Shown here: positions 2,992-61,652 of the stretch, piece after piece
Layout of the letters: every line of letters starts with the position of its first letter
Numbering within the stretch: the first letter of the stretch is position 1
From: a virus
Direction: 5' to 3' (one strand)
DNA: 64,000 nucleotides
Virus record (IMG/VR): IMGVR_UViG_3300047472_000449
The notes under the pieces: model-generated
What the model was told of the DNA's origin: nothing
The model's database searches: none
Seen by the model: only the letters and a program-made list of their open reading frames with translations
Translations under genes and position numbers: made by a program

Positions 2992-3056
2992 GGCGCAGTC
3001 CTTAGGGGTGCTTGGCGATGCCGCGCACTGGCGTCAGCATCACTCATCATCATTCA

Positions 3057-3085
3057 ATTATAGTAAGATCCGCAGCATTTGTCAA
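3057..3085 (-). promoter_or_regulatory. Perfect consensus sigma70 promoter
   Basis: TTGACA (3080-3085), 17 bp, TATAAT (3057-3062). Confidence 0.8.
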
Positions 3086-3316
3086 TATGAAAAACATTAG
3101 TCATCAGATTTAGTCGGCATCACTGATCATTAATTATTATTGATTAATTGTGAAATGGTCCGAGGTTTCAAATTTAAATTTGAATTATACCGAGACCCTT
3201 GCTTTATTTTGTTATTAATCATTTATAATCAATTTAACCATGGCCCGTTCACTCATAAGTCTCAGTGCTCGCTATGACGTGTAGATAATAAACAATAAAT
3301 ATTTGAGTGCAATGAA

Positions 3317-4747
3317 ATGACCAAATTAAGATCCGTACTTGCCTTAACGGTTCTGGTGTCAGCCGGAGCTGCTAACGCAGGAGATTTTCGTTACAACTAC
3401 ACCCTTGTCAGTTCCGAGGTGCCTCCTAACTGGACGCAGGCTGACCCTGCTTATGGCAATTGGGTTGATGTCGGCAATATCTACGGCTGTTCGAACTGGT
3501 CGCCCTATACCTCTACTGTTGGTAAGGGCCTGACATTTGAACAGATCGCGACAAATTGCAGCCAAAACCAGACACGCACTGTCCAGCCGCAAATCAAAAA
3601 CAATGTAACCGGCGAGATTAAAGCCGAGGGCGCGATGGGCTCCGAAGATCGAGCCATTATTGTGTCCGATCATCGTGATGCCATTGGCACCCTTGAGAAC
3701 TGGCTGGGGTTTGATCCGACTTTCACCAGTTGGGTGGACACTAATGCGCTATACGGCTGTTCGGCATGGTCTCCAGATCCGGCGATTTACAACCAAAACA
3801 AAGACTTCGTACAGACATCATTGACCTGTAAAACAGATCAGGAGCGTTTTCGTCAGGAGCGCGAGCAGGAGAAATTCACCCAAGAGATTCGCAATGACGG
3901 ATTGCCAATCAAGGAGAATCAAACCCTTTCTGGACAATCAGCAGACAGGGCCTACTCCATCACTTTCGGGGCTTGGGCTGACTCAGGTGCGCTTTATGGT
4001 TGCAGCAACTGGTCGCCTGACCCAGCCACACAGAATCTTGGGCTGACGTTCACTCAAACGGCCACTGATTGCAGTGTTAATCAGCGTCGCGACCGTTTTG
4101 AGGCTTATATCGACCACAAAACAAAAGCGACAGTGAACTTGGTCAGCACAACTGCTACTCAAGTGGTGACGCGTTCATCCACGCGAAGTGCCACTGGCAC
4201 CAAAGAGACTTGGGCGGCAACCACCTCTGTTTATTCAGCCTGGGCCAATTCCTCGGGACTATACAGTTGCGGTGCATATTCGCCTGACCCAAGCGCATAC
4301 ACGGCTGCCACTCAGTTTAACCAGACTGCTTATTGCTACGTGAATCAAAGTCGTACGCGTCAAGATCGTCAAGTTGAAGTCAACAGCGGCGCCATTAGAA
4401 ACGTAGGTGGCCCCGTTGCTGAAGGACAAACCATTGGTGGTCAGCCATCTGTACGTACGTATCTTCAGGATTACTCGGCTTGGGGATGGGGTGCTTTTTA
4501 TAGTTGTGGTGCATGGTCACCAGATCCATCGACCGTCAGTAATGGTTCAGCTTTCACCCAGACTCAGTATTGCTATAGAAATCTGACTCGTGGTGCGGCT
4601 GGCTATATTTACAATGGCGGCTGGGTCGCTGATCCGGCCAATCCTTATCGTGTTGAAACTCAGGTTTATAGTGGTCAACCTAACTATCAAACTGCTTATG
4701 GTACTAAAAATCCATGTGGCACTCGTTGCCAAGGCGGTGGCGGCTAA
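3317..4747 (+). CDS. Secreted Cys/Trp-rich repeat protein, 5 modules (thrombospondin-like W/R pattern)
   Basis: Signal peptide ending ANA; five C-x-x-[WY]-S-P modules followed by a Q-x-x-T-x-C...Q-x-R-x-R pattern; ends CGTRCQGGGG. Confidence 0.85.
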   Translation: MTKLRSVLALTVLVSAGAANAGDFRYNYTLVSSEVPPNWTQADPAYGNWVDVGNIYGCSNWSPYTSTVGKGLTFEQIATNCSQNQTRTVQPQIKNNVTGEIKAEGAMGSEDRAIIVSDHRDAIGTLENWLGFDPTFTSWVDTNALYGCSAWSPDPAIYNQNKDFVQTSLTCKTDQERFRQEREQEKFTQEIRNDGLPIKENQTLSGQSADRAYSITFGAWADSGALYGCSNWSPDPATQNLGLTFTQTATDCSVNQRRDRFEAYIDHKTKATVNLVSTTATQVVTRSSTRSATGTKETWAATTSVYSAWANSSGLYSCGAYSPDPSAYTAATQFNQTAYCYVNQSRTRQDRQVEVNSGAIRNVGGPVAEGQTIGGQPSVRTYLQDYSAWGWGAFYSCGAWSPDPSTVSNGSAFTQTQYCYRNLTRGAAGYIYNGGWVADPANPYRVETQVYSGQPNYQTAYGTKNPCGTRCQGGGG

Positions 4748-4770
4748 TCGCTATTGAGTTAAATTTCAGC

Positions 4771-4797
4771 AAATGCCACCTTTCGGGTGGCATTTTA
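4771..4797 (+). terminator. Intrinsic terminator
   Basis: AAATGCCACC-TTTC-GGGTGGCATTTT. Confidence 0.8.
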
Positions 4798-4965
4798 TTT
4801 TGCGCTTGATTAAACGATTAACCTATTAATTATATGGCTTTACCATTCGTTACATGAAATATATTTATATTATGGTTTATACTCAATTAAAAGAAGTCGT
4901 GTGTTTCGAGAGAAACTGTCTTGGCATTGCTCACGATTAACAAACTAGGTGTGGGAGAAGTGTGA

Positions 4966-11064: not shown

Positions 11065-11538
11065 TTAATTAATGGTAAATCCTGCTTCCGCCAACGCCGC
11101 CATGGCTTGTTCAATTTTCTGACGTTCAACAGCCTGGGCCTCGGGTTTAATTCCCAGCAGGTAGATCAGCGGGTCGCTGGTCAGGTTCTCTGGTCGAGGG
11201 TCGAAGAACGAATCGTTGCAGAACACAGCAATGTGGCGTTTGTCGAGATCAACAACGTAGCACCATGTGTGCGTGTCGGTTTCCGTATTGGGGAGTGCAT
11301 CCTTGCTCATCAAATCCCAGGCCGTATTGTCCGCACGCACCGCGTCACTGTAGCTTCTGAAGTGGAGGTACTGAAGGCTGTGGAAGTTGTGATCCAGGCC
11401 ATGTTCCTTGCCCGCACCGCCCGTGGTGATCCAGTGCGCGAGGATGCTCAGAACGTGTGTCGGATAGCCATCGCTGCGCTGGGTAGTCGAGATCACTTCG
11501 CTGTTGTTGATGATCTGAATGGATGCAGGCGTTCCCAT
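11065..11538 (-). CDS. Phage-type hypothetical protein (SDGYP motif)
   Basis: 157 aa; promoter TTGACT-17-TATACT at 11588-11616. Confidence 0.7.
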   Translation of the reverse strand: MGTPASIQIINNSEVISTTQRSDGYPTHVLSILAHWITTGGAGKEHGLDHNFHSLQYLHFRSYSDAVRADNTAWDLMSKDALPNTETDTHTWCYVVDLDKRHIAVFCNDSFFDPRPENLTSDPLIYLLGIKPEAQAVERQKIEQAMAALAEAGFTIN

Positions 11539-11625
11539 GGTTCAATCCTCTGAATTCGGCAGGGTGGAGCATGAATCGAAGGTGCTCAGTATAACGACGC
11601 CGACATAAATAGTCAATGTAATTTA

Positions 11626-12057
11626 CTATTTTTGGGCGGTTTTGGAGGCTTTTGTAGAACTCTCTTGCCATTGCAATCTGAGTTCGTCCCAGGCTTTCCG
11701 GGTGAAGCTTTCTGGCACCCTCCGTTGGGTCATGATGCACTGTAGCTGCCAGTCGGATAGGTTTTCACGCTCTTTCTTGTTCGGGTATTTGCGCTTCGAG
11801 GGATTGAGCGCGTTGTTGTAGTAATCGACGCGATCCTGAAGCGACAGTTCATGAAAATCGTCGTCGATTCCTTCGGAAAACCCTTTAAGGGCTTCGGTTT
11901 GAATCTCGTTGGGATACTGTTTAAAGATTCTAATGGCTTCACCAAACAATTTCATTCGCTCGGTAGAGCCCGCGTGCCAAGGCTCGTGTGCGGGCGCCCG
12001 GTTGAAACGCTCTAGAATAAGATCTAGCGCTTGTTGATCTGCGGCTGAAATCTGCAT
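11626..12057 (-). CDS. Hypothetical protein
   Basis: 143 aa; AAGGA RBS; promoter at 12173-12200. Confidence 0.7.
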   Translation of the reverse strand: MQISAADQQALDLILERFNRAPAHEPWHAGSTERMKLFGEAIRIFKQYPNEIQTEALKGFSEGIDDDFHELSLQDRVDYYNNALNPSKRKYPNKKERENLSDWQLQCIMTQRRVPESFTRKAWDELRLQWQESSTKASKTAQK

Positions 12058-12268
12058 GGATTTTCCTTTTTTGATCGAGCGTGTTTTTTGGGCAAGGATT
12101 TTTTGTGGTCATTCCACTCGGGGCATCCTGCCTGTTAGGCACTCAGCGGCTTTTAGACCAATAAAGAAACGTATTATATCGCCATCATGGATTTTGTCAA
12201 CATGACTGTCATTCAGCCCATAGCGTAAGGCGTCATGTGCTATAATTGATGGAAATAGAGGGATTTTC

Positions 12269-13087
12269 ATGAAGCAAATTCAAGAAGTGATTCGACTGGT
12301 ACGTGAATGCCTGGACAGTGGTTTTGCCACAACAGAGCTGGGTAAAAATTCCATGTATCAAGATTATGTTCGGTTCCATGTCGGCGACAACGCGCAGTAT
12401 GTCGCTGATGTCGCGGGTAAGGAGCCTGTAGAAATAAGCATTGCTCGACGTTTGATGCAGGGCAACCTGAATCTGGCCTTCGTTGCGCAGGATCAGTCTG
12501 TAGCGCCGCAGGTGCTTGCGATGCTCAAGGAGGTCGAAGGATTGACTCGTGAAGTCGGCTTCGACTTTGGCAAGCATGGTGCGGATCTGGCATTTGCTCA
12601 TGTCATTCCTGAGCTGTACACCAAGGAGGTTTTGGTGTTCCAGAACACCATCGTCATCACGGCAGACGATGTTACAACGTCCTATTTCGATCCTGAAAAA
12701 TTGGATAAAAAGGTGATGTTGGCGATGAATGCCGCTTATACCAACGAGGCCATGTTGGAACTGGATGCCTTGGGTGCTTATCGCCCTGTTATGAAGCTGA
12801 CAGTGCCCGATCTTTTTGACCCGGTTGACACCCTTCAGGCGATAAGACGCACTGAGTTCAGGGGTGTTGGAGAGCTGGCAGACTATGGCAAGGTGGAGTT
12901 GCTTGAGGGGATTGATCCAGCCACTGTAAAGCTAATCGGAGACTCGGCGGTATTACGCTTGGACGGCAAGGATTACCGGGCCGTTTGGGATCAAGTCCAG
13001 GTGATAGAGGGCTTCAAGGGCGAGCCTGCTGTTGAGCCTAAGCTTGAGCAGAAGCGCTCGATCACTTCGGATGGCCCTAGCTTCTGA
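12269..13087 (+). CDS. Hypothetical protein
   Basis: 272 aa; GAGGG RBS; extended -10 TGCTATAAT upstream. Confidence 0.75.
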   Translation: MKQIQEVIRLVRECLDSGFATTELGKNSMYQDYVRFHVGDNAQYVADVAGKEPVEISIARRLMQGNLNLAFVAQDQSVAPQVLAMLKEVEGLTREVGFDFGKHGADLAFAHVIPELYTKEVLVFQNTIVITADDVTTSYFDPEKLDKKVMLAMNAAYTNEAMLELDALGAYRPVMKLTVPDLFDPVDTLQAIRRTEFRGVGELADYGKVELLEGIDPATVKLIGDSAVLRLDGKDYRAVWDQVQVIEGFKGEPAVEPKLEQKRSITSDGPSF

Positions 13088-17851: not shown

Positions 17852-18240
17852 TGGTGGAGCCGGGGGGATTTGAACCCCCGTCCGTCAGTACTCCGCTGTC
17901 GGTACTACATGCGTAGCCAGATCTATTAAGTTAACCCGTGGCGACCCGATTGGCAGGGTGCGTTGGGCGAGTCGTGTAATGTTTAACTGCTTCGTCCACG
18001 ACGTACTAGGCAGCGATCCTGTTCTATCTGACAATCAGTTCGGGTTTACAGGCATCCCCTAGTGACTGCTGGCACCGAAGTGACCAGAAGTGCATGTCAG
18101 CTGCAATTAAGCAGCGAGAGCAGCACCGAAGGTTTCGTCATTGGCAACTATAAAAGTCGCAACAGTGGATTTACGAGTTCTGTTACCAACTCGGCATGCA
18201 CCTAAAGTTTCGTTACCAGCGTCGAATCCTAATCGGCCCC
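17852..18240 (-). ncRNA. ssrA: tmRNA (transfer-messenger RNA), tag ANDETFGAALAA
   Basis: 5' GGGGCCGATTAGGATTCGAC; 3' GGGGGTTCAAATCCCCCCGGCTCCACCA; tag reading frame 18107-18145. Confidence 0.97.
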
Positions 18241-18753: not shown

Positions 18754-19338
18754 CTAAGGCAGAACCTCATAACCGCGAGCAATGGCTTGTCGCGTAGCTT
18801 CAGCCTTATTCAGCCACTCATGCTTGGAGCCAGTGAACGTCCACCGCTGGTAGTCGATCTTGATGATTTCAACCACCTGGACAGGTGGTTTCTCATCGCT
18901 CGACACATGTGTAAATTTGGCCACCAGCTTTCCATCGACGTTCACCACGTCGAAAAACTCAGGGATAGGCAGGGTGCGCACCTTCCCTTCTGCGTTGCGG
19001 AAAACCACTACGGCGCGCTTGGCAGACTCATCCCAGGCTTCGGTGATCATGGTGCAAAGACCGCCTTCATAATGGCGGTAGACGCCGCCATTGAAGTGAC
19101 GCTCACCCATGGAGTCGATGGCTTGCTGCCACTCGATGACCGTGGAAAACTTCACCGTCACCCCGTGAGAAGGATAGGTCTGTGTGCCAGCACGGAACAC
19201 TTCCGGGTTGTCCCAGTCGCCCGGCTCACCAACGGCATGGAAGCTAAAGTCCATGAAATTGCAAAAGCTGGCGAGGGTTTCGACACTCAGGCCTTCGCAC
19301 GGAATTTCGACCGGCTTATTGCGGTGGCAATCGTACAT
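18754..19338 (-). CDS. Protein containing a DUF1653-like domain
   Basis: YRHYEGG...VVVFRN...RTLPIPEFFDVV...KFTHV matches the YRHYKG...VVY...RP..F pattern. Confidence 0.6.
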   Translation of the reverse strand: MYDCHRNKPVEIPCEGLSVETLASFCNFMDFSFHAVGEPGDWDNPEVFRAGTQTYPSHGVTVKFSTVIEWQQAIDSMGERHFNGGVYRHYEGGLCTMITEAWDESAKRAVVVFRNAEGKVRTLPIPEFFDVVNVDGKLVAKFTHVSSDEKPPVQVVEIIKIDYQRWTFTGSKHEWLNKAEATRQAIARGYEVLP

Positions 19339-19622
19339 AGCTGGCTCCTTTAACGTGCTTTTGCGGCATTTCGGATATTGCGCTCAATGCGGCGAGCGCG
19401 TTTTTCTTGGGCCTGGGCATCGCGCAAATTATGGTGGCGCATGCTGTTGGGTGTTTCACCCACAGACTTCAGGAACTCTTGTCCCTTGGTCATCGGCTCC
19501 GGCCATTTATCCTGATGCAGCTTCATGTGCGCTCCTGAATGCCAAAGGCCTGCATTGAGCACTGCCTTGAATGTTTGATTATAATACCTGAATAATTACT
19601 CATTGTCAATGATGCAAACCAT

Positions 19623-20744
19623 TCAGTCGTTGTTGGCTGCCTCAAATTTGGCAATAAGGTCACTGTCTGATTTTTGCGTAAAATGGTCGGCTCTGGGGGT
19701 CGGCAACGTTGCTACAACCTTGTACTCGGCGTTCTGATTGAAATAATCATGAACTGCCTTGTAGAGCGGTAGCGGGCGGTTATCCAGATAGCGGCCTGAC
19801 CAGGAGAACTGGTTTAGCTCAATCACCTGATACCCGGCCTCAGTGTCCGCAACGTCCACCACGTAGGCGATGGGCAGGACATGCTGTTGGACCTGGGCAA
19901 ACGCTTGGGCAAACTCCCGCACGGCTTTGGGCACGGGTAGCGACACATAGTCGGTGTAGCGCGAGACGCTGTGAGCTTCACCGTTGAAGACAAAACAGCG
20001 AAACTCACGCGTTCCGCTGTCACTCAGTTCGTCGCGCTTAATACTCATGACTTCACTGGTGATGAAATCAGTAGTCAGTGGCACGTAGACAGGCGCCTCT
20101 TTGATCATCCCTTCGCGATACGGGCAGAACCAATCAGGTTTCTGGAAGCGCAGGGCATAGGCGTCGTCCGTCGCGACGGCTCCTGTAAAGCGATTAGGGA
20201 TCGATTCAATCGAAACGAACATATCGGCCAGCTCTGAGGGCTCCCGAAAGATGTGGCGCAGGCTGGTTTCGCTGGAGGGGCCTTTATCGGAGCCCTTGAT
20301 GAACAACGGGAGCGTCAGCGCGCCAGTTTGCAGGCGTTCAATAAAATCCGCTTTTTCGACGTAATCGACTTTGCGTGACAGAAAGGTCTCGGCTTGCTCG
20401 ATCACCAGTGGCCAGCGCGCAACGGTCGCGTTGTCCTCAATGCTCAGCAGCGACTCGAACCCGGCCACGGTGGTCACATGCCGGGTGTTGCAACGACGTA
20501 GCACTCGCCACTGGCTGCGATCCAGGGTGTCCAGATCCACGTTACTGTCCAGCACCGCGCCGCTAGGGTCGTAGGCTACGAACGGAATGCGTGTTGAGCG
20601 AAGGCTGTAAGCCTCAAGACCGCGTTCGCGCAGAATGCAGTAGCGCTGGCTTTCATCCACGTCATCGAAATGGTGCGCCGCAATGGCCAGGGCATCGCGG
20701 TATTGACTGAGGTTGGTAAACTCGATGGCAATGATAACGTTCAT
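19623..20744 (-). CDS. ATP-grasp protein, R2K/DUF4343-like
   Basis: PLFIK, EFRCFVFNG..SRY, YVVDVA...VIELN...SGRY motifs. Confidence 0.75.
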   Translation of the reverse strand: MNVIIAIEFTNLSQYRDALAIAAHHFDDVDESQRYCILRERGLEAYSLRSTRIPFVAYDPSGAVLDSNVDLDTLDRSQWRVLRRCNTRHVTTVAGFESLLSIEDNATVARWPLVIEQAETFLSRKVDYVEKADFIERLQTGALTLPLFIKGSDKGPSSETSLRHIFREPSELADMFVSIESIPNRFTGAVATDDAYALRFQKPDWFCPYREGMIKEAPVYVPLTTDFITSEVMSIKRDELSDSGTREFRCFVFNGEAHSVSRYTDYVSLPVPKAVREFAQAFAQVQQHVLPIAYVVDVADTEAGYQVIELNQFSWSGRYLDNRPLPLYKAVHDYFNQNAEYKVVATLPTPRADHFTQKSDSDLIAKFEAANND

Positions 20745-20764
20745 AGGGTTCCTGGCGATGCGAG

Positions 20765-20974
20765 TTAGGCGTAAGACAGCTTGGCTTTAATCCGGCCACG
20801 GGTGGCCTTCTTGAGCTTTGCAGCCCGCTTGCGCTGGCGGATCGTACTGGGGGTCGTCACGTTGTTCAGCCACTCGCGTGGAATTTCCACCCACACTCCC
20901 CGGCGCTTGCGGTAAAACTTCCCATCAATTTCCTTTCGCATTGACGCGTTTCCCGTTTTTAATTCTGGCTGCAA
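20765..20974 (-). CDS. Small basic hypothetical protein
   Basis: K/R-rich 69 aa ORF. Confidence 0.5.
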   Translation of the reverse strand: MQPELKTGNASMRKEIDGKFYRKRRGVWVEIPREWLNNVTTPSTIRQRKRAAKLKKATRGRIKAKLSYA

Positions 20975-54013: not shown

Positions 54014-54282
54014 TGACTGACGAAGCGCAGAAACCGCTCAAAAAAGAGAACGTCGGCTGATCCTGCTGAGCTATTTGTTTGTGTTTTGCTGTATTTATTT
54101 TGCAGGCAATTATCTTGTCGATAAGTCATCTGAAGCGACCGACAAAATGAAACAGAATGTCGGTGTTGCCGAACAGGTCATCAAGGATACACAAAACCTT
54201 CTTAGCGACACAAAACCATCAACACTGTCGCCACACCACTAATTCTCAACTAATCATCAATTTGATATTCAACGGAGTCACC

Positions 54283-56604
54283 GTGATTTCAGGCCCTATT
54301 CGCAATAAAAAAGACGCCACAACACTTAATCAAAAAAATCTCGTGACTGATGTGACCAACCTCAACGGCACGCGGGTATTTGCCGAGGTGACCCCAGCTG
54401 GCATTTATGATGTGGTCAGGGCGCTGACGTGTTTTGATGGCCCGGTTTCGATTGGTGGTGGACGCTTCAGCATGGGTGGCCAGATCGCCAGTGAGGGCAG
54501 TCTTCATTTGGACATGCGCAACCTTGCGAACATTGATGAACCTAAGTTCAACAACGGTATCCACACCATTTTTGTTCAGGCTGGGGCGACGTGGAAGGAT
54601 GTTCAGCGTCGCATTGATCCGCATGACTTGTCTGTGTCGATTATGCAAACCTATTCCAACTTCACCGTGGGTGGCTCGCTGAGTGTGAATGTGCATGGCC
54701 GATATGTCGGCCAGGGCGCGCTGATTCATTCGGTGCAGTCCATTTTGCTGGTGTTGGCTGACGGCACGCTTAAAACAGCATCACGCACCGAAAATCCCGA
54801 GTTGTTCTTCGGCGCCATTGGTGGTTATGGTGGCATCGGCGTAATCGTTGGGGCTACGTTGATCTTGGCCAAAAATACCAAGGTTGAGCGTTCGTCGAAA
54901 GTCATGCCGCTGGAGGATTACCTGCACTACTTCCAGACCGAAGTGGCCAGTAAAGCCGATCAGGTGGTGTTTCATAACGGCAATCTGTGCCCGCCTCACT
55001 ACTCCACCGTACGAGCCATTTCGTGGAGTCAGACCGACAAGCCAGTCACCCAGCCTGCTCGCCTGTACGAGAAGCGCAAACTGTACCCGCTGCACAAGTA
55101 CGCAATGTGGTCGGTCAGCGAGCTGCCGTTCGGCAAATGGCGTCGTGAGCACATCATTGAGCCGCTGCTGGATCGCAAACCGGCTGTACATTGGCGCAAC
55201 TACGAGGCCGGGTACGACGTGGCTGAACTGGAGCCGGTCACCCGCAGCTACCGAACCTATGTGCTTCAGGAGTACTTTGTGCCGGTCACGCACTGCGCAG
55301 CTTTCGTCAAGCGCATGGGGGACGTGCTCAACCAGCACAACGTCAACGTCATCAACGTGTCTATTCGTCACGCCAAGGCGGATCAGGAGTCGTACCTGTC
55401 CTGGGCGCAGGAAGAGGTGTTTGCCTTTGTCCTGTACTACAAGCAGGGTGTGACACCGGCTGACCAAAAGGCAGTGGGGGTATGGACACGTGAGCTGGTG
55501 CGTCTTGCTTCGCAGTTCGGCGGTTCGTTCTACCTGCCTTATCAGCCGCATGCCACCCGTGAGCAGTTCGATGTGGCCTACCCTCGGGCGGCAAAGTTGT
55601 TTGCTCTCAAAGACCGTCTTGACCCTCATTATCGTTTCCGCAATGTGATTTGGGAGACGTATTACAAAGAATCCTCGGCCACTCAAAGCCGTAATCCGAA
55701 TCACCAACGCATGGAAATCACGGGCATGGAAGGCGAGCTGAGCATTGCAAACTCTGAGTTTCGGGGAGTGATGGCTGACAAGTACTGGCAAGATCAGCTC
55801 TATTTGTTCCTGCAAAACGTGTATGGCCTTTACCCAGCGGCGTCGCTGTTCCAATTGATCGAGCAGCAGTGCGTCGTCTACATGCGTGATGAGGCCATCT
55901 ATCGTTCCACTCAGGAGCGCCTGGGTGAACTGACCAACCCGGTGCGGGCTGCGTTCATGGGCCTTGCGGCGCTGAGCAAGCAGAAGAAAGAAATGGCCGT
56001 CCAAGTGCATTCGTTGACCGGTGGCGGGCGTGCTCGTGCGGTAAACAGCTACGTTGAGATTGGCTCCAAGGGCCGCTACTTCAAGGGCAGTTGCAACACG
56101 AAGGAAGTGGTGCAAGCGCAGTTCGTCGAAGAAAAACCAGTCGGCTACTCGCCGTTGGACATTCTTGAGCGTGGTGCGGTGCCGATTACCGGTCAACAGT
56201 ACCTGCTGGCTGATTACGAGCCGTTGCAAGTGACCGGGCGCGGCCAGATGGACATGGTGACCTGCTTTATCGGCCTACACCATATTGCGCCGGAAAAACT
56301 GGAGGCGTTCGTGCGCTCGATTGCCGACTCGCTGGCCACCGGGGGTGTGTTCATCTTGCGCGAGCACAATGTCGAGACCCCGGAGATGCACCGTTTTGTC
56401 TCGCTGATCCATACCGTGTTCAACATGGGTCTCAAGGAGTCCTGGGACACTGATAGCCGCGAACTGCGCCACTTCCGCAGCCTGAGCTACTGGATCAACT
56501 TGCTCGACAGTGTGGGCCTCACGCTGGAGTCAGGGCCGATCTATCAAAAAGGTGATCCATCCCTTAACGGCCTGATGATGTTCCGTCGCCGTGCTGATGA
56601 CTGA
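54283..56604 (+). CDS. FAD-binding oxidoreductase (PCMH/VAO-type) fused to a C-terminal SAM-methyltransferase-like domain
   Basis: GGGRFSMGGQ, AGATW, FTVGGSLSVNVHG, LFFGAIGGYGGIG, DP.YRF; C-terminal VEIGS.GRY, VTCFIGLHHI, GGVFILREH. GTG start with GGAG RBS. Confidence 0.85.
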   Translation: MISGPIRNKKDATTLNQKNLVTDVTNLNGTRVFAEVTPAGIYDVVRALTCFDGPVSIGGGRFSMGGQIASEGSLHLDMRNLANIDEPKFNNGIHTIFVQAGATWKDVQRRIDPHDLSVSIMQTYSNFTVGGSLSVNVHGRYVGQGALIHSVQSILLVLADGTLKTASRTENPELFFGAIGGYGGIGVIVGATLILAKNTKVERSSKVMPLEDYLHYFQTEVASKADQVVFHNGNLCPPHYSTVRAISWSQTDKPVTQPARLYEKRKLYPLHKYAMWSVSELPFGKWRREHIIEPLLDRKPAVHWRNYEAGYDVAELEPVTRSYRTYVLQEYFVPVTHCAAFVKRMGDVLNQHNVNVINVSIRHAKADQESYLSWAQEEVFAFVLYYKQGVTPADQKAVGVWTRELVRLASQFGGSFYLPYQPHATREQFDVAYPRAAKLFALKDRLDPHYRFRNVIWETYYKESSATQSRNPNHQRMEITGMEGELSIANSEFRGVMADKYWQDQLYLFLQNVYGLYPAASLFQLIEQQCVVYMRDEAIYRSTQERLGELTNPVRAAFMGLAALSKQKKEMAVQVHSLTGGGRARAVNSYVEIGSKGRYFKGSCNTKEVVQAQFVEEKPVGYSPLDILERGAVPITGQQYLLADYEPLQVTGRGQMDMVTCFIGLHHIAPEKLEAFVRSIADSLATGGVFILREHNVETPEMHRFVSLIHTVFNMGLKESWDTDSRELRHFRSLSYWINLLDSVGLTLESGPIYQKGDPSLNGLMMFRRRADD

Positions 56605-56609
56605 TCAAC

Positions 56610-57755
56610 ATGAACACGAAAAAGATCACCGGCAGCCTGTTGGCTGCCCTGCTGGCCAGCAGCACCGTGGTGAACACCGCCCAAGCGGATGCCACGGTTA
56701 CTGCGATCATTCTTCCTATGGTGACCGAAATGATGGTTAACGATAAAAACAAAGCGGCTGAAGCGCCTGAGGCGTCAGCAGAGCGAAAGAGCACCCTGAC
56801 CCCACCTGAGCATGTGCGCCGCGAGGATCAAACGCTGCTGACGATCCCAGAGTGGTTCCTGGTACATAGTCCGAAGGAGTACGCCAATTACATCAAGGCC
56901 GAGCGACCTTCGCGCTTCCCGTTCTTTGGTCACATTCGCCAGTTCTGGAGCACCTACGCCGCCGTCCACAAGGCCACCAAGGATCGCTACAGCTTTAATT
57001 TCGAATACCATGCGGTCGTCATGACCATCGGTATCAGCACCACTGTGGAATACGCCATCAAGGGCGCCTATGAGGCAGTGTTCGGCGCCTTGACCGAACG
57101 GCGTGAGCCCAAAGCCTACCGCACTGCCGAAGACGAATACGCAGCAAAAATCGCCCGTGATTACGTGAATTTTATTGTGGTTGATCCCTGGTACAAGTTC
57201 GACTTCATGGCGGCATTCAACGGCCTATGGGATCTGCCAAAAGAAGGCGAACACCGAGTGCGCAAGTGGGAGCGCCGCTTTGCACTCTCCGCTGAATACC
57301 TCGCCAAGTCCGGCTATGCCTGGGTGATCAAAAAGACCACCCAAGCCAGCTTTGATCCGCCCAAACCGGTCACTGCTGTGGTGGCACGTTTCAAAACAAA
57401 GCCTTCGCCTCAGCAGGTGCCCGGTATGACGGTGCTCAAGCAGATCGATGCTCATCGTTATCTGATCACCCTGCCCCGTTACCAAGCTTTTTCAGACAGT
57501 GCTGTTGCTCTGGCTCGGGCTGGCGCCGACTTTGAGGAAATCGCGGGCAACAATGAGTTCATTGTGCTCAGCGTCCTCACCAAAAGCGACTTCGATGAAT
57601 CGAAAATGGGGGCCAGCGTGGTGCTGCGCCAGCCAATTATCACTGTTCCAGGCATGGAACGCGTGGTGTTTCGTGTGCCGATCAGCGAGTTGTCTACGGC
57701 ACTCATCAAGGCCCGCCATGCAGGCTATAACATCGAACACATCTACGATTTCTAA
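56610..57755 (+). CDS. Exported partner protein of the FAD oxidoreductase
   Basis: Starts 5 nt after the upstream stop; signal peptide ending AQA; EDQTLLTIPEWFLVHSP.EY motif. Confidence 0.8.
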   Translation: MNTKKITGSLLAALLASSTVVNTAQADATVTAIILPMVTEMMVNDKNKAAEAPEASAERKSTLTPPEHVRREDQTLLTIPEWFLVHSPKEYANYIKAERPSRFPFFGHIRQFWSTYAAVHKATKDRYSFNFEYHAVVMTIGISTTVEYAIKGAYEAVFGALTERREPKAYRTAEDEYAAKIARDYVNFIVVDPWYKFDFMAAFNGLWDLPKEGEHRVRKWERRFALSAEYLAKSGYAWVIKKTTQASFDPPKPVTAVVARFKTKPSPQQVPGMTVLKQIDAHRYLITLPRYQAFSDSAVALARAGADFEEIAGNNEFIVLSVLTKSDFDESKMGASVVLRQPIITVPGMERVVFRVPISELSTALIKARHAGYNIEHIYDF

Positions 57756-57776: not shown

Positions 57777-57816
57777 TGTCAATGGCATTGACTATTGACC
57801 GTCGGGCGGGTATAAT
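57777..57816 (+). promoter_or_regulatory. Promoter with operator
   Basis: TGTCAAT-GGC-ATTGACT; TTGACT-17-TATAAT. Confidence 0.75.
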
Positions 57817-57845
57817 GATCACCTATCAAAGACAAGGAGTTTGCC

Positions 57846-58007
57846 ATGGAAATCGTACTGTACGTCTTGGCCATGTTCGGCGGCTCGCTTCAGTATGAGC
57901 CAGTGTTTTTCTGGTCGGTCATGTCGGCCATTGTGGTCGGCGCCATCGCGGTCTATGTCCTGACCGGGCGCCTGTTGCAAAAAACTCGCAAGTCGAAAGC
58001 GGCGTAA
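57846..58007 (+). CDS. 53 aa membrane peptide (not in ORF track)
   Basis: MEIVLYVLAMFGGSLQYEPVFFWSVMSAIVVGAIAVYVLTGRLLQKTRKSKAA; AAGGAG RBS. Confidence 0.7.
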   Translation: MEIVLYVLAMFGGSLQYEPVFFWSVMSAIVVGAIAVYVLTGRLLQKTRKSKAA

Positions 58008-58043
58008 GCTCTCGACTTCCTTAATCGGTGTTACCATCACCGT

Positions 58044-58195
58044 AGGGCGGTTACAGGGGTCTGCATCAGGAATGAACAGATCGCGCCCGGCTACTGTGAT
58101 GAGCAGTTCGGCCATGCCGAGGTAACAGCTTCCTGCCCTGCCCCTCACCGGGCAGCAGAACCCTGAAGATGCAAACGTCTTCAGGGTTGTTTTTT
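58044..58195 (+). ncRNA. Candidate structured ncRNA, copy 1
   Basis: Extended -10 TGTTACCAT 7 nt upstream; conserved stems; own terminator 58159-58195. Confidence 0.65.
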
Positions 58196-58286
58196 GTCCT
58201 CTGTTTGGGTTTTACCTGAGTATTTAACGACCATTGACCGGTAGACGACCCATCTATTATCTGAAGATTGGTGCTAAGCTACTGAT

Positions 58287-58422
58287 AGGGCGGCTTCAGG
58301 GGGTCGAAAGATCGCGCCCAGCTGCTGTGATAAGCAGTTCGTCAATGACGAGGTGACAGCTTCCTGATCAACCCTAGGCAGGGTGACAGTGCCCCGGAGG
58401 TGGAAACGCCTTCGGGGCTTTT
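58287..58422 (+). ncRNA. Candidate structured ncRNA, copy 2
   Basis: Extended -10 TGCTAAGCT 7 nt upstream; compensatory change versus copy 1; terminator 58391-58422. Confidence 0.65.
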
Positions 58423-58515
58423 AATGCCTTGAATTTGAGTTTTAACGTTGGAGCAGATAGTTAATCCGCTCATTGCCAACTAAAGTCAGATGATCAAAGA
58501 CGCCGTTCCCAGTAG

Positions 58516-58710
58516 GTGATGATTATGGAGAATCAGACATTCAACCAGTGGCTGCATGAGGGTAATCGTTATGAGGCGCTACAGGACGTTTACTTCGAAG
58601 ACCGACTTGGGCCTGGGAATGACTTTTTGAAGTGGGCTCAGGCCATGTACTGCGCCAAGCAGGCGCTGCTCAGTGATGGACAAAAGGCGCCACCATGGCC
58701 ATTCAATTAA
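58516..58710 (+). CDS. Small hypothetical protein
   Basis: 64 aa ORF. Confidence 0.55.
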   Translation: MMIMENQTFNQWLHEGNRYEALQDVYFEDRLGPGNDFLKWAQAMYCAKQALLSDGQKAPPWPFN

Positions 58711-61399: not shown

Positions 61400-61598
61400 A
61401 ATAAAAAAAGCCCACAATGTGGGCTCGGTGACTGTTGAATAAGTGCAGCGCGGCCAGTCTTTCCGCCTGCACTAGGGCAATTACCGCGATGGCCCCTCGG
61501 GTGAGTATTTTCAACTAATAATGGCTGAATACACTATACGTACGCACTAAATGCGACCGGTGTGACACATCCGGTTAGACACTTAGAATTGCACCCGT
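61400..61598 (-). ncRNA. Candidate ~200 nt structured ncRNA
   Basis: Extended -10 TGTTATAGT (61605-61613); several hairpins; terminator 61403-61425; no ORF. Confidence 0.4.
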
Positions 61599-61652
61599 CC
61601 TCACACTATAACAATCCTTTAGGATGAACTCCAGACAATTCCATTGTGTCGA

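Follow-up and report, generated by a model that had tools for sequence, protein, structure and literature searches.

A putative duplicated gene for a structured small RNA, each copy with its own promoter and terminator signals, in an uncultured gammaproteobacterium

What kind of element is repeated on the plus strand near position 58,000 of the 64-kb window (the whole stretch of DNA analysed here)? A first-pass annotation, made from the letters alone, described a tandem pair of a compact RNA belonging to no class that its author knew, and thought of a ribozyme or an antitoxin RNA, among others. We have compared the pair with other loci (metagenomic contigs, given below by L-numbers). The host is taken to be an uncultured gammaproteobacterium because the UDP-glucose dehydrogenase of the window is ~70% identical to the enzymes of Aeromonas and Enterobacteriaceae. 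By way of a 381-aa protein encoded beside the pair, the window is assigned to a contig of 1,136,430 bp from JGI metagenome 3300046522, to which a Logan contig is identical. The region around the RNA pair is chromosomal and unusually rich in ORFans, with synteny kept over at least 12 kb in L012, L013 and L017. Almost all of the ~30 ORFs tested over the window (1-64000) are without a Pfam match, and nearly all ORFs neighbouring the pair match nothing in Pfam or PADLOC. A candidate Hfq-like ORF at 51.4-51.7 kb has a Pfam match in neither frame call.

The two units and their promoter and terminator signals

The repeat consists of two plus-strand units, 58044-58196 and 58287-58422, which share a core of ~85 nt. 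The two cores are ~89% identical, leaving aside a 12-nt insertion in helix P2 of copy 1. The likeness of the copies is not a matter of chance, since a 26-nt degenerate pattern has exactly two sites in the window, namely the two copies, against 0.00 expected, and blastn-short aligns one copy with the other at E = 2e-11. A covariance model built from the two copies (R1) and run with filters off detects no third copy in the window. The units are made up as follows.

58029-58037, plus strand: extended -10 promoter of copy 1, TGTTACCAT, then 6 nt, then A58044 of AGGGCGG
58044-58136, plus strand: structured core of copy 1, with P1 58045-49/58084-88, P2 58058-66/58072-82, P3 58089-92/58127-30, P4 58093-96/58104-07, P5 58108-12/58116-20 and the CCUG tail 58132-35
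58138-58155, plus strand: P6 hairpin of copy 1, CUGCCC / GGGCAG
58159-58196, plus strand: intrinsic terminator of copy 1, stem 58159-58188 of 13 bp, T-rich tail GTTTTTTG
58272-58280, plus strand: extended -10 promoter of copy 2, TGCTAAGCT, then 6 nt, then A58287
58287-58367, plus strand: structured core of copy 2, with P1 58288-92/58315-19, P2 58302-05/58310-13 (GAAA loop), P3 58320-23/58358-61, P4 58324-27/58335-38, P5 58339-43/58347-51 and the CCUG tail 58363-66
58371-58384, plus strand: P6 hairpin of copy 2, ACCCU-AGGC-AGGGU
58391-58422, plus strand: intrinsic terminator of copy 2, stem 58391-58418 of 12 bp, GAAA loop, 4 U (TTTT)

Both copies had been described as starting with AGGGCGG 7 nt after an extended -10 element, and sequence and spacing bear this out. 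Indeed, in all seven distinct sequences now at hand (see below) a TG-n-TA-nnn-T element, which may also be written TGYTAMNNT, ends 7 nt before AGGGCGG. The key bases of this element, TG, T-12, A-11 and T-7, are invariant in the seven sequences, and the hexamer has CCA, AGC, AAG, CGA or AGA in its middle. Invariant key bases around a varying hexamer middle are the pattern expected of a working extended -10 promoter. On sequence evidence, each RNA would thus have its own promoter directly on its 5' side.

The intrinsic terminators that the annotation placed at the end of each copy are recognized by a terminator scanner, which finds both to be strong, and they would form the 3' end of the RNA. 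Their stems of 12-13 bp have a pair probability of 1.000 in every full-length fold, and at three of the pairs the copy-1 type and the copy-2 type differ in both partners. The U tail of the copy-2-type terminator counts 4 U in the window and 5-6 U in relatives. In transcripts folded without the 3' strand of the terminator, no common alternative helix uses its 5' strand, so that no antiterminator is apparent there. The predicted RNAs are ~150 nt (copy 1) and ~136 nt (copy 2) long. Copy 1 leads no ORF; what follows it is the promoter of copy 2.

The annotation saw no ORF in the pair. This holds insofar as no gene caller called any ORF overlapping the units. Mechanical ORFs, however, do overlap them, at 58234-58356 (plus strand, 40 aa, TTG start), 58342-58479 (minus strand) and 57819-58148 (minus strand). 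The plus-strand ORF is shortened to 31 aa in L012, and the changes in the minus-strand ORFs over the units are mostly amino-acid replacements.

Another ORF-less stretch running from promoter to terminator is seen on the minus strand at 61405-61615 (GGATTGTTATAGT, ~190 nt, terminator GAGCCCACATTGTGGGC followed by T7). It is directly followed by the operator-bearing promoter of an 82-aa gene. Its own promoter is of the 'GATTG..TA...T' style found in the RNAs at 58 kb, and model R1 has no match there.

Relatives, fold and substitution pattern

Relatives were reached through homologues of two proteins encoded beside the pair, one of 381 aa and one of 61 aa. Model R1 matches all the closely related contigs, in which five further variants occur, bringing the number of distinct sequences to seven. 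Copy number varies: there are two copies in L012-L015, which are mutually identical, and a single one in L011, L017 and L032/L033. In the single-copy genomes the slot of copy 1 is taken by an unrelated ORF of 48 or 158 aa. The evidence on structure therefore comes from seven near-identical sequences, that is, about four lineages plus paralogues.

RNAalifold, applied to the seven sequences without user input, recovers P1-P6 and the terminator, and thus arrives independently at all the helices that had been named from the window alone. Alignments A5 and A6, made with MAFFT, are structurally consistent. In A5, which holds six of the seven sequences, 97.9% of the cells are paired, a share that falls to 38-48% if the partners are shifted by 1-3 columns. 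Double changes are seen in eight pairs of A5, and on four of five measures the observed values are reached by none of 500 shuffles.

In the core, the 44 paired positions carry seven substitutions, all of which lie in P2-P5 and keep pairing, and no core pair is broken. The ~37 unpaired positions carry ~11-12 changes, a rate about twice that of the paired ones. A single core change is double (P5 G-C to U-A). The five others are single and wobble-compatible: P2 G.U to G-C, P3 G.U to A-U, P3 G-C to G.U (L032), P4 A-U to G.U and P4 U-A to U.G. Beyond the core, P6 and the terminator add seven double changes, and P6 of the copy-2 type shows compensatory changes in L011, L017 and L032. Helix P2 varies in length, carrying GAAA, GAAUA or the 12-nt extension on a fixed base of 4 bp. 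Further pair-preserving changes, sought among homologues in addition to those that the annotation had seen between the two copies, were thus found. P1 and the proposed CAGG:CCUG pseudoknot show zero variation in the seven sequences and hence lie outside any covariation test. RNAalifold brings out an equally invariant nested extension of P6, CUG(91-93):CAG(114-116), which competes with this pseudoknot; the latter has gained no support.

The core is also more conserved than its surroundings. Between the window and L012, the two cores are 96.8% and 92.6% identical, versus 86-90% in the flanking spacers. The stability of the core, on the other hand, does not exceed that of shuffled sequences (z of -0.26, or about -0.3, and -1.41); at full length z is about -4, which is due to the terminators. 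P1 and P3 often have low probability in single-sequence ensembles.

One structural label does not hold. The loop of P4, described as T-loop-like, reads UGAURAR. A T-loop requires U as its first and A as its fifth residue, but the fifth is G in the copy-1 type, and ARAGORN sees no tRNA there. Over the window ARAGORN gives the tmRNA only, and no tRNA-like element.

The P2 extension of copy 1 (58066-58072) forms a hairpin whose loop, CAGGA, is like a CsrA/RsmA-type GGA site; it occurs neither in copy 2 nor in the single-copy relatives. A role as a CsrA sponge was considered and rejected. A GGA in a loop is found in copy 1 only, and one to three GGA motifs per RNA are too few.

Known RNA families and distribution

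The statement that the RNA falls outside the known classes stands: it has no match in Rfam 15 at gathering scores or at E <= 10. Over the window, Rfam 15 at gathering scores gives the tmRNA only. At E <= 10, the segment 57950-58520 returns nothing but noise of 13-16 bits from miRNA and snoRNA models, and the loci of the relatives return tRNAs only. The tmRNA is of the standard, one-piece form (17852-18240, minus strand, 185 bits, tag peptide ANDETFGAALAA).

Broad conservation has no support, since the RNA was found only in a species-level clade. How close its members are may be judged from the 381-aa protein, which is at least 95% identical in L011 (the one relative measured), and from the DNA of the window and L012, which is 96.8% identical. 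Model R1, with filters off, has no match in four distant syntenic loci (L003, L005, L006 and L007), where the homologue of the 381-aa protein is 55-64% identical. In plasmid and phage collections, blastn in distant mode finds no match. Exact-pattern scans of IMG/VR give 0 matches. Among the GTDB species genomes the pattern GCTNCTGTGATNAGCAGTTCG gives three, all rejected by the covariance model; this pattern is too strict, as a loop of the L011 type would be missed. The exact pattern has 14 matches in the metagenome contig collection, all of them due to chance; the window's own contig is not part of this collection. Because exact-pattern scans tolerate no mismatch, they bound close relatives only.

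The 381-aa protein, which has no Pfam family, is encoded at 54157-57755 (plus strand) together with an 815-aa FAD-binding oxidase carrying a C-terminal methyltransferase domain. This gene pair is widely conserved in Proteobacteria, with more than 500 homologues. In L003, the slot 3' of the corresponding FAD-oxidase/355-aa pair holds tRNA arrays at 11151-12447 (minus strand, 16 genes) and 19292-20786 (plus strand, 11 genes). The same slot in L006 holds an array of nine tRNA genes (11129-11907, minus strand). The arrays consist partly of 170-bp tandem repeats.

Judged from the sequence comparisons, a structured non-coding RNA gene, duplicated and with a promoter and terminator for each copy, is supported. 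The pair represents a small RNA gene family that is genuine, uncatalogued and constrained in its structure, and that was found in one narrow clade only. To speak of an undescribed compact class of non-coding RNA, as the annotation did, is an overstatement; the evidence fits an orphan sRNA family.

What the pair may do

The best explanation, which we hold with about even confidence, is that of a lineage-specific, stand-alone sRNA gene whose duplication gave two siblings in tandem, comparable to prrF1/prrF2. Sigma-70 RNA polymerase would transcribe each unit from an extended -10 promoter that is independent of a -35 box, with the A of AGGGCGG as the first nucleotide. The RNA would fold into a P1-P2 hairpin abutting a three-way junction of P3, P4 and P5, followed by the P6 hairpin, and the strong intrinsic terminator would release it as a free RNA of ~150 nt from copy 1 or ~136 nt from copy 2. 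Its action in trans is suggested to depend on shape, the RNA serving as a scaffold for a protein or ligand, and not on a long antisense seed. We infer a function based on shape because selection acts on the helices, substitutions fall mostly in the loops and no conserved linear seed is visible, the loops and linkers being the variable parts. No significant complementarity to the RNA is found in the window or the compared loci. Read-through at the terminator of copy 1 probably also yields a copy1-copy2 dimer transcript. Through this dimer and through transcripts from the upstream peptide gene (see below), some transcription may reach the 61-aa gene downstream.

In Pseudomonas aeruginosa, prrF1 and prrF2, of 116 and 114 nt, are sRNA genes in tandem, 95 nt apart; the tandem arrangement is found in one species only, and terminator read-through gives PrrH (PMC2851614; PMC4211561). 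The present pair resembles them in having two head-to-tail homologous sRNA genes of ~115-150 nt with a spacer of ~90-95 nt, an apparent promoter and Rho-independent terminator for each, and the possibility of a read-through dimer. In both cases a single lineage has the tandem layout, and its relatives show another arrangement or number of copies. However, the RNA shows no sequence or Rfam similarity to prrF, no Fur box or other known regulator site and no conserved single-stranded seed; its conserved part is instead a junction-type fold. The greater conservation of the orthologous cores relative to the spacers and a copy number that varies among close relatives, as in sibling sRNAs, support the sRNA interpretation. 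What counts against it is the core stability, which does not exceed that of shuffles, the single double change in the core, and the fact that neither a seed nor a target was found. The constant same-strand place of the RNA 5' of the 61-aa ORF also fits a cis leader.

To weigh such alternatives, the genes on both sides of the pair must be considered.

57788-57816, plus strand: strong sigma-70 promoter of the 53-aa peptide gene, TTGACT-17-TATAAT, 11/12 matches
57846-58007, plus strand: gene of the 53-aa peptide, hydrophobic with a basic C-terminus, 51-53 aa in all relatives
58458-58486, plus strand: putative weak promoter of the 61-aa gene, TAGTTA-17-TAAAGT, read from alignment A4
58525-58710, plus strand: conserved acidic ORF of 61 aa, always ~100 nt 3' of a copy-2-type RNA, no Pfam or PADLOC match

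The -35 box of the 53-aa gene promoter forms one arm of the palindrome GTCAATGGCATTGAC. Many small genes of the window have near-consensus sigma-70 promoters in which the -35 box is one arm of GTCAAT-N3-ATTGAC (e.g. 57779-57793). In Pfam the 53-aa peptide has a sub-threshold match to DUF6644 only. As there is no terminator between its gene and copy 1, its transcripts should enter copy 1 and end at the copy 1 terminator. The 61-aa protein aligns over residues 34-58 with eight repeats of a TPR protein of 799 aa (P0139), so that the C-terminal half of the short protein has the look of one TPR-like helix pair. An exhaustive HMMER search with the 61-aa protein adds one more-distant homologue, 53% identical, in L034. 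This locus (3005-4840) carries the homologue just 3' of a VbhA-Fic toxin-antitoxin module. With filters off, R1 does not find the RNA upstream of it; a 21-bit match inside the Fic coding region (3331-3446) was judged spurious.

A cis-acting 5' leader of the 61-aa gene, be it a riboswitch or an attenuator answering a protein or an RNA, is the main alternative, though we consider it unlikely. In the copy-2-type unit a sensor domain would then stand between promoter and terminator, and copy 1 would have arisen by duplication of this module, giving a tandem architecture. A switch from the CAGG:CCUG pseudoknot to the nested CUG:CAG/P6 pairing, or back, would control readthrough into the ORF. The RNA does lie on the same strand, ~100 nt 5' of the ORF, in every lineage. 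Its CCUG tail takes part in two mutually exclusive, invariant pairings, and the constraint is on shape and not on a seed. The scanner sees no sigma-70 promoter between the copy-2 terminator and the ORF, the candidate being weak and below threshold. Yet both hexamers of this candidate are kept in four lineages (TAGTYA-17-TARAGT, with a varying spacer), so that the ORF may have a promoter of its own. Copy 2, moreover, keeps a promoter, and copy 1 has no ORF to lead. The terminator, with its pair probability of 1.000, faces no conserved competing antiterminator such as would have to overlap the sensor domain. Nor does the association with the gene extend across divergent genomes, as the sole distant homologue of the 61-aa protein lacks such an RNA. 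Known riboswitch classes are usually widespread, whereas this RNA was found in one narrow clade only. Small RNAs derived from riboswitches, such as SreA and SreB, are known. We regard as improbable a combined reading in which the P1-P5 core and CAGG:CCUG make up a new sensor fold for a small molecule or protein, switching between pseudoknotted and P6-extended states. It would set readthrough into the 61-aa gene in cis and act in trans as the released RNA, in a riboswitch-like class confined to the clade. Tandem riboswitches built of complete aptamer-plus-terminator units do exist (PMC9481103). The pair is like them in placing a structured domain and an intrinsic terminator 5' of a same-strand ORF, in one or two copies, and in the alternative pairings of its 3' tail. 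It is unlike them in the apparent promoter of each unit, the very strong terminator without a conserved antiterminator, its having been found in one narrow clade only, the lack of any ligand clue from gene function and the absence of the RNA 5' of the distant ORF homologue.

The annotation had also thought of an antitoxin RNA, either of type I, directed against the 53-aa membrane peptide, or type III-like, directed against the 61-aa protein. A small hydrophobic peptide gene with a strong promoter does lie directly upstream, and the order of repeated RNA, terminator and protein gene is superficially that of ToxIN. Type III antitoxin RNAs (ToxI) are repeated, pseudoknot-capable RNAs followed by a terminator and then a protein gene, and their repeats of 34-45 nt are processed. 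The present pair shares the pseudoknot-capable repeated RNA and the order of the parts, but its units are ~240 bp long with promoters of their own, rather than short repeats that a downstream endoribonuclease toxin processes. The 61-aa protein, an acidic one, matches no PADLOC defence model or Pfam family and is far smaller than ToxN-type endoribonucleases. A type I antitoxin should have extended complementarity to the toxin mRNA. RNAduplex energies with the 53-aa and 61-aa mRNAs, however, are no more favourable than those of shuffles (z from -1.6 to +0.5), and the longest antisense match by blastn-short is <=11 nt. Furthermore, in L011, L017 and L032 the peptide gene and the RNA are not adjacent, as an ORF of 48 or 158 aa lies between them. 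An antitoxin RNA is therefore very improbable. Still less credible is a new class of self-cleaving ribozyme, to which nothing tested points. The compact junction and possible pseudoknot would suit one, and UGAUGAG of copy 1 resembles the CUGAUGA box of the hammerhead. But none of the ribozyme models of Rfam has a match, not even at E <= 10, the hammerhead-like string begins with G and not C, and the other copies read UGAUAAG or UGAUAAA, so that the essential G is lost. A hammerhead would combine CUGANGA ... GAAA with a three-way junction and a cleavage site; copy 1 has GUGAUGAG and the other sequences GUGAUAAG or GUGAUAAA, the context of a cleavage site is not conserved, and the loops are the variable parts. 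Finally, the pair might have no function as RNA at all, being a recently duplicated intergenic segment (e.g. a promoter-terminator insulator module) whose copies are alike through youth. The narrow distribution, the core stability no greater than that of shuffles and the small number of independent substitutions would agree with this. We nevertheless find it quite improbable: the paralogues differ by 11% and yet keep every core pair, the orthologues are more conserved than the flanking spacers, the key bases of the promoter are invariant in seven sequences, and the observed pairing is reached by 0/500 shuffles.

If the duplicated stand-alone sRNA gene is expressed, it would add an uncatalogued sRNA family for an uncultured gammaproteobacterium, in a region with almost no recognisable gene functions. 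The prrF-type layout, in which tandem sRNA genes each have a promoter and a terminator and copy number differs between close strains, would then have a second natural example. As the family was found in one narrow clade only and offers no functional clue, its value for now lies mainly in annotation and as a lead, not in a new principle, and no new class is demonstrated. Its constraint at the level of the fold commends the RNA as a reasonable candidate for binding a protein or a ligand.
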